Assembly: GCA_964568715.1 (NCBI GenBank)
Contig: CAZMQU010000001.1
Location: 23,932-87,931, forward strand
Source of the DNA: an uncultured Halanaerobiales bacterium
GTDB taxonomy: Bacteria; Bacillota; Halanaerobiia; B1SED10-174
Reading direction: 5' to 3'
DNA: 64,000 bases
The stretch's first letter is position 1, and every line of letters begins with the position of its first letter. The position numbers and the translations under genes are program-made. Shown piece after piece: positions 8,657 to 58,611 of this stretch. The notes below the pieces were generated by a model. That model had not been told where the DNA came from and searched no databases. It was given only the letters and a program-made list of their open reading frames with translations.

Positions 8657-8685
8657 TTGACAAGGCATGTAATTTAGGATACAAT
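8657..8685 (+). promoter_or_regulatory. sigma-A promoter upstream of SAM riboswitch
   Basis: TTGACA-N17-TACAAT. Confidence 0.8.
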
Positions 8686-8712: not shown

Positions 8713-8818
8713 GGCTCTTATCAAGAGAGGTGGAGGGACTGGCCCTAGGAAACCTCGGCAACCACGAATTATTTCGATGGTGCCAATTCCAGCAACACGA
8801 AGTGTTGAAAGATGAGGG
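8713..8818 (+). ncRNA. SAM-I (S-box) riboswitch
   Basis: CTCTTATCAAGAGAGGTGGAGGGACTGGCCC...GGCAACC...GGTGCCAATTCCAGC...GAAAGATGAG consensus core. Confidence 0.95.
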
Positions 8819-8839
8819 AAATAGGTAGCTAGTAAAAAC

Positions 8840-8871
8840 AAGCCTCTTTCTCTCAAGGGAAAGGGGCTTTT
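8840..8871 (+). terminator. SAM riboswitch expression-platform terminator
   Basis: AAGCCTCTTTCTC/GGGAAAGGGGCTT stem followed by T run. Confidence 0.8.
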
Positions 8872-9097: not shown

Positions 9098-9126
9098 TTG
9101 ACAGGGCCATTTCCATATGTTAGAAT
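9098..9126 (+). promoter_or_regulatory. sigma-A promoter upstream of lysine riboswitch
   Basis: TTGACA-N17-TAGAAT. Confidence 0.8.
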
Positions 9127-9160
9127 CATAGTTAATTGCATAGATTGCCCTCTGGAAACG

Positions 9161-9329
9161 GATAGAGGCGCGGTTAAGAGGTAGAGATGATGAGGAACAG
9201 GTCCGATGATTCATTCTGAGGGCTTAACCGCCGAAGTTGTAAGCCGACCTGTTGAAGGTTTACTACTGGGCTTGCGTTTGATAGGCGTAAGACTGTCACT
9301 GCTTGAATTCCTGCAGTGGAGAGCTATTC
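9161..9329 (+). ncRNA. Lysine riboswitch (L-box)
   Basis: ATAGAGGCGCGG...AGAGGTAG...GCCGAAG...TGGGCTT...AAGACTGTCAC...GTGGAGAGCTAT architecture, upstream of dap genes. Confidence 0.9.
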
Positions 9330-9348
9330 TACAATGATAATTTATTTG

Positions 9349-12084: not shown

Positions 12085-13316
12085 TGGGGGTGGCAGGATA
12101 CAATGATATTATTGTCCAAAAATTCGGCGGAACTTCTTTGTCTTCACTGGAAAATATTGATAGGGCCGTTACCAAAATTATCGCTGCCTTGGAAAAAGGC
12201 TTTCGCCCCGTGGCAATCGTATCAGCCATGGGCAGAGCCGGTAGCCCTTATGCAACCGATACTCTTTTAAATGCACTGCGTGAAGCCAGCCCCGGCGCAG
12301 CTGCCCGGGAAAAAGATCTTTTGATGTCATGCGGCGAAATAATAAGTACGGTTTTCATTACATCAATTCTCCGGGAGAGAGGTTTTCCGGCGGTTGCCAT
12401 GACCGGCGGCCAAGCAGGAATTATTACCAACAACAACTATGGTGAAGCCAAGATTCTGCGTGTCAAACCCGATAAGGTGCGGGAGGCTTTGGCTGAAGGT
12501 ATAATTCCTGTTGTAGCGGGTTTTCAAGGCCGGACCCCGGAAGGAGATGTAACTACTTTAGGTCGCGGTGGCAGCGATATAACGGCTTCTGTCATTGCAG
12601 TCGCCTTGAATGCTTCTCTTTTGGAGATATATACTGATGTCGACGGGGTGCTAACGGCTGATCCTCAAAAAGTGCCTGATGCCCAGGTTCTGCCGGAAGT
12701 ATCTTACGAAGAGATATTGGAATTGGCCGCCCAAGGGGCTAAGGTGATTCATCCGCAGGCGGTAAAGATTGCCGGTAAAAGGAATATGCCTATTAAAATA
12801 TTACCTACGTTTAGTGATAAGCCCGGAACCCTCATTAAAGCCAAAAGCAAATATAGCAGTTCACCCGAGAGGATAGTTACGGGAATAACCAGCAAAAACA
12901 ATAAGGTTTATGTGGAAGTTCAAAGTAAAGAAGGCTACAAGGGTCATTGCAATTTGCAAACCCTCAAGTCTTTATACGAAAATAATATCGGCGTTGATTT
13001 TTTAAGTTTACAGCCATCATCTTTATCGTTTATAGTCGGCAAAAAATTTATAGGTAAGATGGAAGAAATTTTTGCAGAAAAATATATATATAATTACGAA
13101 AACGGCTTCTGTAAAGTTACGATTATCGGCAGTGAATTTTTCTGTGGATACAGGATTCTAAGTGACGCATTGGCGGCACTGCAGAAGGAGAATATAGCCA
13201 TACAACAGGTTAGGGATAGCCAATCTACGGTCTCATTGCTCTTAAGAGAGAGCGACGAAGAGGATGCTTTGAAGACCCTGCATAAAAAATTCAGGCTTGA
13301 GGAGGTTGTTTTATGA
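12084..13316 (+). CDS. dapG: Aspartate kinase (DapG-like)
   Basis: VQKFGGTS, SAMGR, TLGRGGSD, YTDVDGVLTADP; position between asd and dapA. Confidence 0.88.
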   Translation: MGVAGYNDIIVQKFGGTSLSSLENIDRAVTKIIAALEKGFRPVAIVSAMGRAGSPYATDTLLNALREASPGAAAREKDLLMSCGEIISTVFITSILRERGFPAVAMTGGQAGIITNNNYGEAKILRVKPDKVREALAEGIIPVVAGFQGRTPEGDVTTLGRGGSDITASVIAVALNASLLEIYTDVDGVLTADPQKVPDAQVLPEVSYEEILELAAQGAKVIHPQAVKIAGKRNMPIKILPTFSDKPGTLIKAKSKYSSSPERIVTGITSKNNKVYVEVQSKEGYKGHCNLQTLKSLYENNIGVDFLSLQPSSLSFIVGKKFIGKMEEIFAEKYIYNYENGFCKVTIIGSEFFCGYRILSDALAALQKENIAIQQVRDSQSTVSLLLRESDEEDALKTLHKKFRLEEVVL

Positions 13317-14203
13317 CTTACTTTGGCAGGTTAATCACTGCCATGGTTACACCATTTGGTGATGATCTTTCGATTGACGGAAGTAAAGTTCAACTACTGA
13401 CGAGGTACTTAATTGAAGAACAAAAAACCGATGCTATTGTTGTTGCAGGAACAACCGGAGAAGCCCCTACGTTGACAGGGGAAGAACGATTGGAACTGTT
13501 TCGCCTTGTAGTTGATGCGGCAAACGGAGATTGCCAGGTATTGGGGGGAACCGGAACGAACAGTACGGCCACTACGGTAGATCTTTCTCAAAGAACCAAA
13601 GGTATTGGTCTTGATGGAATAATGGTTGTCGTCCCTTACTATAACAAACCCACTCAGGAGGGTGTCTATGCCCACTTTGCAACTGTGGCGGCAAAGGTTG
13701 ATTTACCGATGATGGTATACAATGTGCCCGGTCGTACCGGGATGAATGTCGGTCTGGAAACTTTGTGCCGGCTGGCCGATATTGAACAGATAAAAGCATT
13801 GAAAGAAGCAACCTTGGATTTTGATAAGATTGCATTGCTAAGGAAAGAAGTCGGCAACGATTTTGCTATTTACAGCGGTGATGATAATTTAACTTTGCCC
13901 CATTTAGCAGTTGGTTGTGACGGTGTTGTCAGCGTAGCTTCTCATGTTGCCGGAACCCGGATTAAAAGGATGATTGAATTATTTAAAGACGAGGTATCCA
14001 ATGAAAGGGCTTTGGAGCTTCATATGGAACTGTTGCCCGTATTTCAAAGTGTTTTCCAAACTACCAATCCGATACCCATTAAGGCTGCTTTGGCCATGGT
14101 GGGGCAAGATGTCGGCGGTTTGCGCCCTCCTTTACAAAGAGCTGGGGAAGATGATAAAGAAGCGATAAGAAAACTATTGGTAGAAGGTAAGGTTCTGAAT
14201 TAA
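13313..14203 (+). CDS. dapA: 4-hydroxy-tetrahydrodipicolinate synthase
   Basis: ITAMVTPF, GTTGE, PYYNKP, YNVPGRTG, catalytic KEA, YSGDD, NPIPIK. Confidence 0.95.
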   Translation: MTYFGRLITAMVTPFGDDLSIDGSKVQLLTRYLIEEQKTDAIVVAGTTGEAPTLTGEERLELFRLVVDAANGDCQVLGGTGTNSTATTVDLSQRTKGIGLDGIMVVVPYYNKPTQEGVYAHFATVAAKVDLPMMVYNVPGRTGMNVGLETLCRLADIEQIKALKEATLDFDKIALLRKEVGNDFAIYSGDDNLTLPHLAVGCDGVVSVASHVAGTRIKRMIELFKDEVSNERALELHMELLPVFQSVFQTTNPIPIKAALAMVGQDVGGLRPPLQRAGEDDKEAIRKLLVEGKVLN

Positions 14204-14216
14204 AGAAAATTAAGTG

Positions 14217-14462
14217 AAAGGTACTGAAAACCAAGCTTTAAGGGAATTGATGTGCTTGGTTTTCTTGTACTTTTTTTATGTATACTGCAGTAAGCAGTAT
14301 ACAGGTAAGGTTAAAAGTACTGAAAACCAAGCTTTGGGGGAATTGATGGTGCTTGGTTTTCTTGTACCTTTTTTTGTGTATACCGTAATAAACGGTATAC
14401 CGGTAAGGTAAAAGGTACTGAAAACCAAGCTTTAAGGGAATTGATGGTGCTTGGTTTTCTTG
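14217..14462. repeat. Structured tandem repeat, period 96-98 bp, about 2.5 copies
   Basis: Copies start at 14217, 14313 and 14411; arms GTACTGAAAACCAAGC and GCTTGGTTTTCTTGTAC alternate in orientation; inner palindromes GTATACTGC/GCAGTATAC and GTATACCGT/ACGGTATAC. Confidence 0.95.
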
Positions 14463-14488
14463 TTTTATTTGGGTTTTTGGGGTATAAT
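14460..14488 (+). promoter_or_regulatory. Candidate sigma-A promoter for rnj
   Basis: TTGTTT-N17-TATAAT; RBS AGGAGGT at 14519. Confidence 0.55.
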
Positions 14489-14537
14489 AAGTTTAGTTTT
14501 TTTTGCCTGTTACCAATTAGGAGGTGTCTTATATTTT

Positions 14538-16190
14538 ATGTCAGTAGTACGCGCTATCCCCTTGGGTGGGGTTGGCGAAATTGGAAAGAATATGATGTTG
14601 ATTGAGATTGACGGTCGCATTTTAATTATTGATGCGGGAGTCATGTTTCCCGAAGAAGATCATTTGGGTATAGACTTGGTTATTCCGGATATTTCTTATC
14701 TTTTGGATAATAAAGAGATGATTGACGGTATAGTTCTTACCCATGGGCACGAGGATCATATTGGAGCTTTACCTTATGTGTTGAAAGAAATAAACGTGCC
14801 GGTTTACGGAACAAGGCTTACCTTAGGTTTAGTCGATGCAAAGTTAAAGGAGCATACGTTCTGCCAAGAAATAATTTTAAATGAAATTGCCCCGGGTGAG
14901 CCGATTAAAATTGGTTCTTTTGAAATTGAACTTATCAGAGTAAATCATAGTATCGCTGATACTTGTGCTCTGGCTGTGGAAACACCCAAAGGACCGATAA
15001 TTTATGCCAGTGATTTTAAATTTGACCAAACGCCGATTGATGGAATTGTAGCTGATTTTCATAAGTTGGGCGGCTACGGTGACAGAGGGGTTTTAGCCCT
15101 TTTTTCTGACAGTACCAATGCCGAACGGGAGGGGCTTTCCCTTAGCGAGAAGGTTGTCGGTGACAAAATCGATTCGGTTTTTTCTACCACAAGAGGTCGC
15201 ATAATAATTGCCACTTTTGCTTCCAATGTTCACAGAGTCCAGCAGGTGGTTGATGCTGCTTATGCTTACAAGCGGAAAGTAGCAATTATCGGGCGTAGTA
15301 TGATCAACAACTGCCAGATTGCCGCTGAGTTGGGATATTTACATATTCCTGCCGACATGATTGTTGATATTGACCAAATTCAGAATATGGATCCCGACCG
15401 AATTACAATATTGACGACGGGGAGTCAGGGAGAGCCCATGGCGGCACTGACCCGCATCGCCCGTGGTGAACACCGACAAATCCGTATTATACCAGGTGAC
15501 ACGGTCATGGTTTCCGCTTCGCCAATACCCGGCAACGAGCGTTTGGTCGGTGAAACCATCAATAAATTATTTCGCCTCGGTGCCAATGTCATTTATCAGG
15601 CTATAACGGGTGTGCATGTTTCAGGCCATGCCAATAGGGAAGAACTCAAGTTGATGTTTAATTTGGTCCGTCCCCAATACTTTGTTCCAGTGCATGGAGA
15701 ATACCGCCATCTGTACCATCATGCCCAATTGGTGGAAACGCTGGGACTCAATAAGGAAAATATCTTTATTTTGGATCCCGGCAGTATCTTGGAATTCAAG
15801 GAAGACGGTGCGGAGGTTGTCGATACTTTCAATGCCGAAAATATTTTAATTGACGGTTTGGGTATCGGGGATGTGGGCAATGTAGTCTTGCGGGAAAGGC
15901 GTTTGCTTAGCGAAGACGGAATCTTGGTTGTGGTTATGTCCATCGATAAAGATGGGAACGTCGTTGCCGGTCCGGATATTATAACCAGAGGTTTTGTCTA
16001 TATTAAAGAGTCGGAAGATTTGATAAAGGATGCCGTCGTGGTTGTGGAAGAAGTCTTAAAAAATAATGATTATGGAAAAAACATGCCTTGGTCGCGGTTG
16101 AAAAGCAGGATCCGTTCTGCCCTTTCGAACTTCGTTATTCATAGGTTGAGAAGGCGGCCCATGATACTACCCATAATAATGGAAGTATAA
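14538..16190 (+). CDS. rnj: Ribonuclease J
   Basis: PLGGVGEIGKN, THGHEDHIG, DSTNA, TGSQGEPMAAL, HVSGHA, PVHGEYRH; ATG at 14538 after RBS. Confidence 0.96.
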   Translation: MSVVRAIPLGGVGEIGKNMMLIEIDGRILIIDAGVMFPEEDHLGIDLVIPDISYLLDNKEMIDGIVLTHGHEDHIGALPYVLKEINVPVYGTRLTLGLVDAKLKEHTFCQEIILNEIAPGEPIKIGSFEIELIRVNHSIADTCALAVETPKGPIIYASDFKFDQTPIDGIVADFHKLGGYGDRGVLALFSDSTNAEREGLSLSEKVVGDKIDSVFSTTRGRIIIATFASNVHRVQQVVDAAYAYKRKVAIIGRSMINNCQIAAELGYLHIPADMIVDIDQIQNMDPDRITILTTGSQGEPMAALTRIARGEHRQIRIIPGDTVMVSASPIPGNERLVGETINKLFRLGANVIYQAITGVHVSGHANREELKLMFNLVRPQYFVPVHGEYRHLYHHAQLVETLGLNKENIFILDPGSILEFKEDGAEVVDTFNAENILIDGLGIGDVGNVVLRERRLLSEDGILVVVMSIDKDGNVVAGPDIITRGFVYIKESEDLIKDAVVVVEEVLKNNDYGKNMPWSRLKSRIRSALSNFVIHRLRRRPMILPIIMEV

Positions 16191-43614: not shown

Positions 43615-43639
43615 ACATTTTTAACAAGTGAAATATAAA

Positions 43640-43673
43640 AAAAACAGGACTTGCAAAAAGGTCCTGTTTTTCT
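43640..43673 (+). terminator. Terminator after rny
   Basis: AAAAACAGGAC/GTCCTGTTTTT. Confidence 0.75.
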
Positions 43674-43766
43674 ATTAGTTACCAGAACGATAAAGCAGGA
43701 ACAGAGGTAGCTTAGATAGAAATTGAAGTCATGGTAACGGATGCAGAACGGGTAGGTGGAAATAAT

Positions 43767-44267
43767 ATGACCGGATCGGCTACAGTTGACTTTTTGGTAT
43801 CGTTGTTGGTGTGTTATCCGCAAATAAACCAAGCCAAGATCGAATCCTCTGCGAAATTTCTCCAGCTGACATTTTTAACAAGACCGGGTTACTCGCAAGA
43901 TGATTTTCGGGAGCTTGAATGTCGCATGTCAGCAGGTATTTCATTTTACAGGCAAATATCCGACGGGCAAAATCTGAATGTTAATTTGCAGTGGCGACCC
44001 GGCTATTGGGAGAAAGATTTTAATTTGAGTAAGATTGTTTTAGAGGTACCTTTGCCGGAGTTGGATACAGGAACAATCGGTATGTTAATCGGTCTTTTTG
44101 AAGTTTGTTCCTTGCAACCTATTATCAGTGAGAATATACAAACGGAAGATTCTTTTTTGCACTCTGGCCCCGGATTAAGCATATCGCCGCAAAAACTCAT
44201 GGAATCGTCGGCCAGCTTTTTCGGATTTAGGGAAGATGGCAAAGTTCTTGTCTTTAAAAGCAGGTAA
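43767..44267 (+). CDS. Conserved hypothetical protein
   Basis: RBS AGGTGG then ATG at 43767; ends FFGFREDGKVLVF; no family recognised. Confidence 0.7.
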   Translation: MTGSATVDFLVSLLVCYPQINQAKIESSAKFLQLTFLTRPGYSQDDFRELECRMSAGISFYRQISDGQNLNVNLQWRPGYWEKDFNLSKIVLEVPLPELDTGTIGMLIGLFEVCSLQPIISENIQTEDSFLHSGPGLSISPQKLMESSASFFGFREDGKVLVFKSR

Positions 44268-44373
44268 AAGCGATATTTTTAGCGTATACTATTTTTTAGT
44301 ATACTTTTTTTATTTTTACATAATTGACCCGCTAAGGTGAAAATGGTTGATTGGGAAAGGAATGGTTTAAATA

Positions 44374-56805: not shown

Positions 56806-57432
56806 ATGTATCAAAACCAACCCCATCAACAAAGGTCCCAATTCCGCTCTGAAAATTCATCGCAAGAAATTCAGCAAACCCATTCTCAGCAAGAACTACA
56901 GTCACAACAAAATAATTCCCAATATCAATCACAGAAAATGCATTCTCAAGATGAATCGCACCAAGCCCATTCTCAGCAAGAATCCCAATCGCAACAAATC
57001 CATTCTCCCCAGCAAGCTCAACAACCCCAAGCCGGGCAAATGCATTCTCAACAACATCACCGGCAGGCCCAACATTATTCACCGAATCATTCTCAACATA
57101 CAATAAAGGCTACGAACCTTAGTATGCCGCAATACATTCCTTTCATGGACGTTGTAGAATCAAATCAAGATGTCAGATATCTATTTGCTTTGCCTGGTTT
57201 ACGCCCCGAACAGGTGGAAGTTTGTATAACCGACAATTATTTGCAGGTTCAAGCCCACATGCCTCCAAAAGGTGATGACTCCTGTTACCTGCACAAAGAA
57301 ATCTTGGAAGGCAACTTTACCAGGGAGGCAATGATACCACCTTATATCAATTCCAGTAACCCGAACATCAATTTCCAGGACGGCATCTTAACCGTGGCTT
57401 TTAACAAAACTGCCAACCAGTGTATACCCTAA
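56806..57432 (+). CDS. Hsp20/alpha-crystallin protein with Q/H/S-rich repetitive N-terminus
   Basis: PFMDVVE...LPGLRPEQVEV...GNFTRE...FQDGILTVAFNK; HSQQE-type repeats. Confidence 0.85.
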   Translation: MYQNQPHQQRSQFRSENSSQEIQQTHSQQELQSQQNNSQYQSQKMHSQDESHQAHSQQESQSQQIHSPQQAQQPQAGQMHSQQHHRQAQHYSPNHSQHTIKATNLSMPQYIPFMDVVESNQDVRYLFALPGLRPEQVEVCITDNYLQVQAHMPPKGDDSCYLHKEILEGNFTREAMIPPYINSSNPNINFQDGILTVAFNKTANQCIP

Positions 57433-57635: not shown

Positions 57636-57782
57636 GAGTATCCCTAGAAAGCGGGGGAGAAGTTATGTTTGGCAACAAAGTTGCTGAAATATTTCAGAGT
57701 ATTCCCGGCAAGCGGGGGAGAAGTGCATAAGGGTAATAAGGTCAGAAAATTCACCCGGCAAGTAAGAGAGCGAAGGAGAAGC
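57636..57782 (+). repeat. Degenerate direct repeat, 28 nt, period 61
   Basis: GAGTATCCCTAGAAAGCGGGGGAGAAGT (57636-57663) and GAGTATTCCCGGCAAGCGGGGGAGAAGT (57697-57724), 24/28 identical; weaker third copy around 57750-57782. Confidence 0.7.
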
Positions 57783-57906: not shown

Positions 57907-58611
57907 ATGGATATGAAAGCAATATTATTTGATCTTGACGGTACTTTGGTTAACATGGATGTGGACACTTTTTTCCCTGTATATGTCAAGTTGTTGGCCG
58001 AAAAAGTCAGTCACATTATGCCCGAAAAAGAATTTGTTTCTCTTTTGATGAAATCAACTGAAGCAATGATTAAAGATATAGATTCTTCTTACACCAACGA
58101 AGAGGTGTTTACAAAAGCTTTTTTTAAAGATGACAAGTACGATCAGGAACTAATGTTTAATTTGTTTATGGATTTTTACGAGAATGAATATCGCGGTATG
58201 GCTAACATGTTCGGCCCCATCGACGATTGTCACGCTGTATTGGATTTAGTTTTGGAAAAAGGTTTAAGGGTTATCTTGGCTACTAATCCATTATTTCCTA
58301 AAGTGGCAATTGTTGAACGATTGCGTTGGGCGGGAGTTAATAATTACCCTTTTGAATTGATTACTACATACGATAATATGCACGCGTGCAAACCACAAAT
58401 CCAGTATTATAAGGAAATTTTGGCTAAGACAAATCTTGCTGCAGAGGATTGTATGATGATCGGCAATGATCCATTGGAGGACTTGATTGCAGGTCAGCTG
58501 GGACTTAAAACATTTTTGGTCGAGGATATGATGATTGAGCGGCAGGAAGGTTTTCGACCCGATCACAAAGGTTCGATGAAAGATTTGTTGGCCCTTCTTG
58601 GTAATTTGTAA
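57907..58611 (+). CDS. HAD-superfamily hydrolase
   Basis: FDLDGTL, ATNP, CKP, IGND...D. Confidence 0.9.
   Translation: MDMKAILFDLDGTLVNMDVDTFFPVYVKLLAEKVSHIMPEKEFVSLLMKSTEAMIKDIDSSYTNEEVFTKAFFKDDKYDQELMFNLFMDFYENEYRGMANMFGPIDDCHAVLDLVLEKGLRVILATNPLFPKVAIVERLRWAGVNNYPFELITTYDNMHACKPQIQYYKEILAKTNLAAEDCMMIGNDPLEDLIAGQLGLKTFLVEDMMIERQEGFRPDHKGSMKDLLALLGNL

Follow-up and report, generated by a model that had tools for sequence, protein, structure and literature searches.

The dapA-rnj spacer and its genomic context

The stretch of DNA analysed here, which we call the window, is 64,000 nucleotides long and holds about 60 open reading frames, nearly all of them on the + strand. These are housekeeping genes, ftsK, pgsA, cinA, recA, rny, ymdB and mutS among them. 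The gene dapA (13313..14203, + strand; NCBIfam TIGR00674, 5e-94), whose stop codon TAA occupies 14201-14203, is the last gene of a dpaA-dpaB-asd-ask-dapA operon, upstream of which a lysine riboswitch is found at 9155-9334. After a spacer of 334 bp it is followed by rnj, encoding RNase J (14538..16190, + strand; NCBIfam TIGR00649, 4e-188), with an ATG at 14538 and a ribosome-binding site AGGAGGTG at 14519-26 (+ strand). The downstream neighbours of rnj are a ClpP-like tepA homologue, ylzJ and uppP, and the whole order dpaA-dpaB-asd-ask-dapA-rnj-tepA-ylzJ-uppP is the conserved Firmicute arrangement, as in Bacillus subtilis. The best match of the RNase J outside its own cluster is 71% identical, and the source organism is a deep-branching relative of the Halanaerobiales. 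Genes for ExbB/MotA, ExbD and TonB-C also occur in this Bacillota genome (48860-50832) and are in keeping with the outer-membrane-bearing (diderm), Halanaerobiales-like relationship to which the RNase J matches point.

The region ahead of the operon has features of its own. A SAM riboswitch (8715-8818), preceded by a strong promoter of its own (8657-8685) and followed by a terminator-like hairpin at about 8836-8870, has no open reading frame after it, and some 230 nt later a second promoter (9098-9126) drives the lysine riboswitch ahead of dpaA. The segment 8649-9549 can be read either as an orphan SAM riboswitch or as a tandem of a SAM and then a lysine riboswitch before an operon with asd and aspartate kinase, two genes common to the methionine and lysine pathways.

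Architecture of the tandem array

The array begins 13 nt past the dapA stop codon, on the coding strand, and TRF reports positions 14217-14463 as one tandem array with a period of 98, 2.5 copies and 89% matches. It is built from an X' core GAAAACCAAGC (14226-36, 14322-32 and 14420-30) and an X core GCTTGGTTTTC complementary to it (14254-64, 14351-61 and 14449-59), all read on the + strand, with short linkers (17-18 nt) and long ones (about 57 nt) between them in alternation. The order is X'-s-X-L-X'-s-X-L-X'-s-X, which has the alternating orientation and the two linker classes of BIME-type repeats. The 17-nt arm occurs three times, against 0.16 occurrences expected by chance.

Each unit of 96-98 nt consists of three parts. 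In the first, a terminator-like hairpin of 11+4(+4) bp, with 17-19 nt in its loop, stands between an A-tract and a U7 tract; the second is a mini-hairpin of 9-10 bp and the third a conserved GGUAAGGU motif. The first terminator-like hairpin, T1 (14217..14277, + strand, -24.8 kcal/mol), comprises the A-tract and outer stem AAAGGTAC (14217-24), the X' core (14226-36), a 17-nt loop (14237-53), the X core (14254-64), GTAC at 14267-70 and the U7 tract at 14271-77. It is followed by mini-hairpin 1 (14279..14303, + strand, -13.9 kcal/mol), which reads TGTATACTGC / AGTAA / GCAGTATACA and has 10 bp, and by the first copy of the GGTAAGGT motif (14304..14311, + strand), invariant in all four long linkers of the window and of a second species described below. 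The second hairpin, T2 (14313..14375, + strand, -19.3 kcal/mol), carries an A.C mismatch in its outer stem and is made up of AAAAGTAC, the X' core (14322-32), an 18-nt loop (14333-50), the X core (14351-61), GTAC at 14364-67, a C, and the U7 tract at 14369-75. Mini-hairpin 2 (14378..14400, + strand, -12.3 kcal/mol) reads GTATACCGT / AATAA / ACGGTATAC with 9 bp, and the second copy of the GGTAAGGT motif lies at 14402..14409 (+ strand). The third hairpin, T3 (14411..14472, + strand, -15.8 kcal/mol), consists of the X' core (14420-30), a loop (14431-48), the X core (14449-59) and the U-rich tail UUGUUUUAUUU.

The 301-nt region folds far more stably than shuffled sequences do, at z = -8.1 for the + strand and z = -17.4 for the - strand. 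No Rfam family matched: the whole window was searched at the gathering threshold, and the region at E<=10 gave noise only (miRNA and snoRNA models). Two further candidates were considered for the units and rejected. Tandem promoters or tandem sRNA genes were dismissed because scanning and inspection found no acceptable -35/-10 pair inside the units. Small hydrophobic peptides read from a loop ATG (14345-14411 and 14250-14411) were dismissed because their frames differ by a 1-nt indel and are truncated in the second species; the open reading frame from the loop ATG of copy 2 reads MVLGFLVPFFVYTVINGIPVR and is not a gene.

Two mutually exclusive pairing registers

Folding yields two registers, one made of X'-short linker-X hairpins followed by a U-run and the other of long hairpins. 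Long hairpin 1 (14254..14332, + strand, 79 nt, -36.5 kcal/mol) pairs X1 with X'2 across the long linker and has no U-tract after it, and long hairpin 2 (14351..14430, + strand, 80 nt, -37.9 kcal/mol) pairs X2 with X'3 in the same manner. The arms, linkers and 79/80-nt hairpins that an earlier note on this DNA had described are therefore present in the TRF and folding results, and the note was also correct that two folds compete: the registers share their arms, exclude each other and have similar energies, being nearly iso-energetic in the window and in the second species. T1 is the minimum free energy structure as soon as it is transcribed, and RNAalifold returns a nested mixture of the registers. 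The GCTTGGTTTTCTTGTAC arm has no internal complementarity and pairs only with a neighbouring X' arm. Since only four of the U residues of the invariant U7 runs pair in the long hairpin, these runs fit terminators better.

The array in related genomes

Exact-protein look-ups with the window DapA and RNase J gave no matches; two NCBI metagenome-assembled contigs, L126 and L127, were reached through cluster members of these two proteins. Look-ups with YlzJ led only to contigs that end short of the dapA-rnj spacer. L126 (GCA_040436515.1) is 99.86% identical to the window, and its dapA-rnj spacer measures 140 bp, that is 334 minus 194, or two units fewer. This spacer holds a single X'-loop-X hairpin identical to the third copy of the window (T3). 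Nucleotides 1-136 of this contig (JBEFFC010007951.1) repeat, in reverse complement, the part of dapA that comes next (window 13379-13514), an inverted-duplication assembly artefact. The loss of two units may be a real deletion or an assembly collapse, and it is because of the artefact at one contig end that a collapse has to be considered for the one-hairpin form.

L127 (GCA_040364275.1) belongs to a different species, with 87.4% DNA identity, is colinear with the window through the locus and carries the full 2.5-copy array at the orthologous position. All three hairpins show terminator anatomy in both species. The array is absent from the more distant relatives L001-L003 and L123-L125 (64-71% RNase J identity), and these are therefore uninformative on covariation. 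Other lineages have one terminator or none and then the same rnj promoter, with spacers of 77-183 bp as opposed to 334 bp. The array is an expansion specific to the source genus.

Compensatory changes in the stems

Between units 1 and 2 of the window there are 11 substitutions, of which 9 are transitions, and one indel; six of these substitutions make up three compensated pairs. In simulations of random mutation, at least three compensated pairs arose with P ~5e-4 to 2e-3. The outer C-G pair of unit 2 was scored by hand, as a MAFFT gap in the T-run blocked the automatic count, and an equally good alignment of the units treats the outer C as a 1-nt insertion. It had been claimed that every stem difference between the units is compensated. 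The three compensated pairs are there, but A14303 against C14401 is uncompensated, and here the inner stem loses its 10th pair. The outer T-A/C-G compensation, moreover, is valid in the long-hairpin register but not in the terminator register, where the same site is an A.C mismatch in copy 2 and a G.U pair in copy 1.

The GC/UA compensation at the loop-closing pair of the mini-hairpin changed its meaning once L127 was used as an outgroup: the position is indeed paired in both window units, but through two independent repairs and not through one double change. Both L127 mini-hairpins read GTATACCGC-AGTAA-ACGGTATAC, with a C.A mismatch at the loop-closing pair, which by majority rule is the ancestral state; in the window, unit 1 repaired it by a change of A to G and unit 2 by a change of C to U. 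Pair 7 of the mini-hairpin of unit 1 (C-G to U-A), on the other hand, is a true double change. An outgroup is thus needed to interpret compensatory differences among the copies of a repeat, as one of the three claimed compensations turned out to be two independent repairs.

Comparison with L127 also brought further covariation to light. In the 11-bp core stems of the window and L127, 66 of 66 cells are standard pairs despite nine substitutions, and two positions are changed on both sides. A core-stem A-U found in every window copy is G-C in every L127 copy; in copy 3 of L127 a C-G core pair has become U-A with both sides changed, and copy 1 of L127 has one G.U core pair. The chance of seeing no disruption is 0.007-0.05 if five independent substitutions are counted and 2e-4 to 7e-3 if nine are. 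Some peripheral pairs have been lost, as GTAC has become GCCC in unit 2 of L127, which breaks two pairs in either register. With respect to the registers, the compensated pairs are evenly divided, one for each: U-A in copy 3 of L127 is a Watson-Crick pair in the terminator register only and G.U in the long register, while the C14368-G14414 pair is Watson-Crick in the long-hairpin register only and an A.C mismatch in T2. All this covariation is drawn from two species, hence from few independent events. A palindromic operator for a DNA-binding protein was also considered and rejected, as the L127 change of C-G to T-A in both half-sites of a single copy fits pairing better.

Conservation of the array

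Between the window and L127 the array is identical at 215/249 positions (0.86), and the four-fold degenerate sites of ask, dapA and rnj at 265/389 (0.68; Fisher p = 1.1e-7). The 13-nt spacer between the stop codon and the array is identical at 7/13 positions (0.54), and the promoter and leader of rnj at 69/74 (0.93). The U7 tracts after hairpins 1 and 2 are invariant in all four internal units, with a U-rich tail after the third hairpin. The loops contain the conserved motifs UUUAAGG and GAUGGUGC, and GATGGTGC is invariant in all of them except for a 1-nt gap in copy 1 of the window. Judged from these comparisons the array is a selected structure, as the covariation in L127 and the identity of 0.86 against 0.68 at four-fold sites both indicate. 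The earlier proposal of a selected RNA or ssDNA structure is supported in this way: it had been open to refutation by homologues without extra covariation, and the double changes in the L127 core stems are such covariation, in an array conserved above synonymous sites.

These numbers bear directly on the alternative that the array is a functionless tandem duplication, whose stems are kept by template switching (quasipalindrome correction) and gene conversion rather than by selection on RNA. A single template-switching event can produce compensatory changes over several bases and mend a stem (PMC8794818). The compensations found in both registers are what one would expect if any nearby inverted repeat served as a template; the copies are partly homogenised within a genome, V_u1 and V_u2 being 96% identical, and L126 lacks two units. 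However, the identity of the array is far above that of four-fold sites and of the 13-nt spacer, and the unpaired U7, GGTAAGGT and GATGGTGC segments are invariant too, which templated repair leaves unexplained. The copy number is also equal in both species, although the divergence of the window linkers W_L1 and W_L2 dates back at least to the species split. We regard such a functionless duplication as unlikely.

Age and dynamics of the copies

The two L127 units are 96% identical with each other, the two window units 87%, and any cross-species pair about 86%. In comparisons across species, each third hairpin has the other as its closest counterpart (0.88). The long linkers of the window are 0.83 identical with each other, and either of them is 0.86-0.91 identical with those of L127. 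From these within- and cross-species identities it follows that the array predates the split of the two species and has been partly homogenised since. The final codons of dapA (14185-94) resemble the sequence in which the long linker ends, AGGTAAGGTT (P ~0.02), which is only a hint that the duplicated segment may have begun inside dapA. We also considered the long linker as a copy of the spacer and -10 element of the rnj promoter, and rejected this since the alignment was no better than with shuffled sequences (P = 0.2-0.65).

The rnj promoter lies downstream of the array

The rnj promoter (14460..14488, + strand) consists of a -35 element TTGTTT at 14460-65, a 17-nt spacer and a -10 element TATAAT at 14483-88. 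Its -35 element abuts the third X arm and overlaps the U-rich tail of T3. A generic promoter scan misses it, as TTGTTT fits TTGACA at 3/6 positions only; nevertheless L001, L002, L123 and L124 (Anoxybacter fermentans) also have TTGTTT-N17-TATAAT ahead of rnj, and the promoter is 100% identical in L126 and L127. Since the array is located upstream of this conserved promoter, it belongs to the 3' region of dapA and not to the leader of rnj, and it could affect rnj through read-through only. The suggestion of a cassette tuning RNase J is weakened accordingly, since the promoter downstream of the array, whose -35 element overlaps the last arm, is one that five lineages conserve.

A regulatory role may nevertheless be imagined, in which the array acts as an RNA switch or a processing cassette: either the choice between the terminator and the read-through register would set transcription from dap into rnj, or the conserved loops and GGUAAGGU would bind a protein or be RNase sites. 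The mutually exclusive pairings of similar energy fit such a role, as do the compensated pair specific to the long register, the conserved single-stranded motifs and the constraint on the whole array. Yet a tandem repeat of any hairpin yields alternative registers automatically, and rnj has its own conserved promoter further downstream. Among the features of an attenuator, mutually exclusive terminator and anti-terminator pairings are present, but no sensing element was found, either as an Rfam match or as a small ORF, the latter not being conserved in frame between copies or species. The dapA stop codon, 22 nt before the X' core in the window and 17 nt in L127, is probably too far away for a terminating ribosome to block T1. 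Taken together, a switch or processing cassette seems fairly unlikely to us.

One version of this idea is a bistable, register-shifting RNA element, which we hold to be decidedly improbable. If the first arm paired with its own partner, three terminators in series would result; otherwise the arms would re-pair downstream into two 79-80-nt hairpins without U-tracts, and in this re-paired state the riboswitch-controlled dap transcript would continue into rnj. The conserved loop and GGUAAGGU motifs could then be the handle for a register-setting protein or RNase. Were the alternative register used, the array would represent a new kind of read-through switch.

Searches for dispersed copies

Neither blastn-short, nor repeat finding over the whole window, nor covariance models of the long and the short hairpin (the latter built from six sequences) gave a second copy of the array in the 64-kb window. 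Beyond the array, the short-hairpin model made only weak matches to ordinary terminators, for instance at 43627-43681 and at the rnj 3' end in L124. The exact pattern of the 22-mer X arm and U-run had no match in 185,579 species genomes or in metagenome contigs. With the X' 17-mer as an exact pattern we obtained 95 single matches in species genomes, where a rough estimate of chance matches is about 70; none of the 95 had an X arm nearby, and eight came from an unrelated multicopy element of Melioribacteraceae. A two-arm pattern returned 24 unrelated hairpins in metagenomes and none in viral contigs, the mini-hairpin pattern had no match in viral contigs, and no plasmid or phage sequence matched the whole region in blastn.

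The Melioribacteraceae element is longer than 120 nt and is present as near-identical copies in two assemblies, OY782765.1 (L006, L024, L027 and L055) and CAXXGF01 (L023, L038, L044 and L078); it has no relation to the array, and its GTACTGAAAACCAAGCT 17-mer is a chance occurrence. Other repeats were seen within the window. The gene of a protein with an Hsp20/alpha-crystallin domain (56806-57432) has an N-terminal region made of three diverged 62-nt repeats (56872-57095), which are spaced 75-87 nt and in which codons for Gln, His and Ser abound. In the spacer upstream of a HAD-hydrolase gene at 57907, the 28-nt sequence GAGTATYCCNRGMAAGCGGGGGAGAAGT occurs twice in direct orientation, 61 nt apart (57636-57724); this pair may act as a site of regulation or form a small structured RNA. 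A terminator at 44279-44312, after a gene ending at 44267, reads GTATACTA-TTTTT-TAGTATAC followed by T7; its GTATAC stem and T-run recur in the part of the array around the mini-hairpin, where 26 nt match at 81% identity, and this likeness is probably a coincidence in AT-rich DNA.

The searches were particularly relevant to the proposal that the array is a REP/BIME-like or MITE-like cluster belonging to a dispersed mobile repeat family. As in BIME-2, its inverted arms are separated in turn by linkers of two classes, and its 79-nt units bear terminal inverted repeats of 16/17 nt, as a MITE would. However, there is no second copy in 63.7 kb, and no transposase or RAYT is found among the approximately 60 ORFs of the window. 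No arm is a palindrome by itself, and the units are not the imperfect palindromes that REP elements are. No target-site duplication is seen, as the units are flanked not by a short duplication but by the repeated short linker of 17-18 nt. A MITE would be expected in many copies at non-orthologous positions, whereas the array occupies an orthologous position in two species, being colinear in L127, and only the number of units varies, in L126. A REP/BIME or MITE identity is thus not supported by the window or the collections searched, and we consider it very improbable.

A proposed stack of terminators at the end of the dap operon

From the repeat and its two folds, their conservation and covariation and the position of the promoter, we infer termination, insulation and an origin of the array by duplication. 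We give about even chances to a reading in which three hairpins resembling intrinsic terminators form a stack, specific to this lineage and maintained by selection, that ends the riboswitch-controlled dap operon and insulates rnj. RNA polymerase coming from dapA would meet T1, T2 and T3 in turn, so that read-through into rnj would be minimised, and rnj would be transcribed separately from TTGTTT-N17-TATAAT. The hairpins at the 3' end would probably also shield the dap mRNA from 3' exonucleases. The array may have arisen by tandem duplication of a terminator region before the split of the two species, and would since have evolved under a base-pairing constraint combined with partial homogenisation among its copies.

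A stable hairpin is followed by a U-rich tract in T1 (U7), in T2 (CU7) and in T3 (UUGUUUUAUUU), and likewise in L127. The loops of intrinsic terminators are typically 3-8 nt, however, and those of the array, at 17-19 nt, are far larger than usual; a scan with a consensus terminator (loops of 3-8 nt) found no terminator in 13800-14800. Termination by stacked hairpins also leaves the mini-hairpin, the invariant GGUAAGGU and the loop motifs UUUAAGG and GAUGGUGC unexplained. The C14368-G14414 pair specific to the long-hairpin register and the near-equal energies of the registers speak against the stack as well.

The array is a real, selected, lineage-specific structured repeat without an Rfam family, most simply explained as duplicated terminators. 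It is a natural non-coding tandem repeat under demonstrable selection for base pairing, and it borders a metabolite-controlled biosynthetic/sporulation operon on one side and the gene for a central RNA-decay enzyme on the other. If it is a terminator stack, it would be a case in which strict insulation between transcription units was built by duplicating a terminator.

Comparison with known systems

The hairpins formed by template switching (Monttinen and Loytynoja 2022, PMC8794818) resemble the array in their multi-base compensatory differences between near-perfect inverted arms and in the repair of mismatches. What that work describes, however, is a mutational mechanism and not a function, and the conserved unpaired segments of the array are left unaccounted for.

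In the attenuators of trp leaders (1:2 / 2:3 / 3:4), as in the array, each arm may pair with either neighbour and only one register makes terminators. Unlike these attenuators, the array is situated at the 3' end of an operon and not in a leader, and it showed no recognisable leader peptide, aptamer, or binding signature for a tRNA or a protein.

REP elements of enterobacteria and pseudomonads are known as stabilisers of mRNA 3' ends. The array shares with REP/BIME sequences an extragenic location between co-directional genes, alternating inverted arms, two linker types and local variation in the number of units, but it differs from them in that a single arm does not form a stem-loop, the locus is orthologous, the searches returned no dispersed copies and the window contains no RAYT.

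Intrinsic (Rho-independent) terminators also occur in tandem at the ends of operons, the classic case being the double terminators after rRNA operons. The hairpins of the array differ from these in being homologous copies within a 98-bp tandem repeat, with loops of 17-19 nt; they alternate with a conserved mini-hairpin and GGUAAGGU, and they can re-pair into long hairpins devoid of a U-tract. Like tandem terminators, the array presents successive hairpins, each with an A-tract before it and a U-tract after it, directly behind the final stop codon on the coding strand, and like them it would insulate the next transcription unit.
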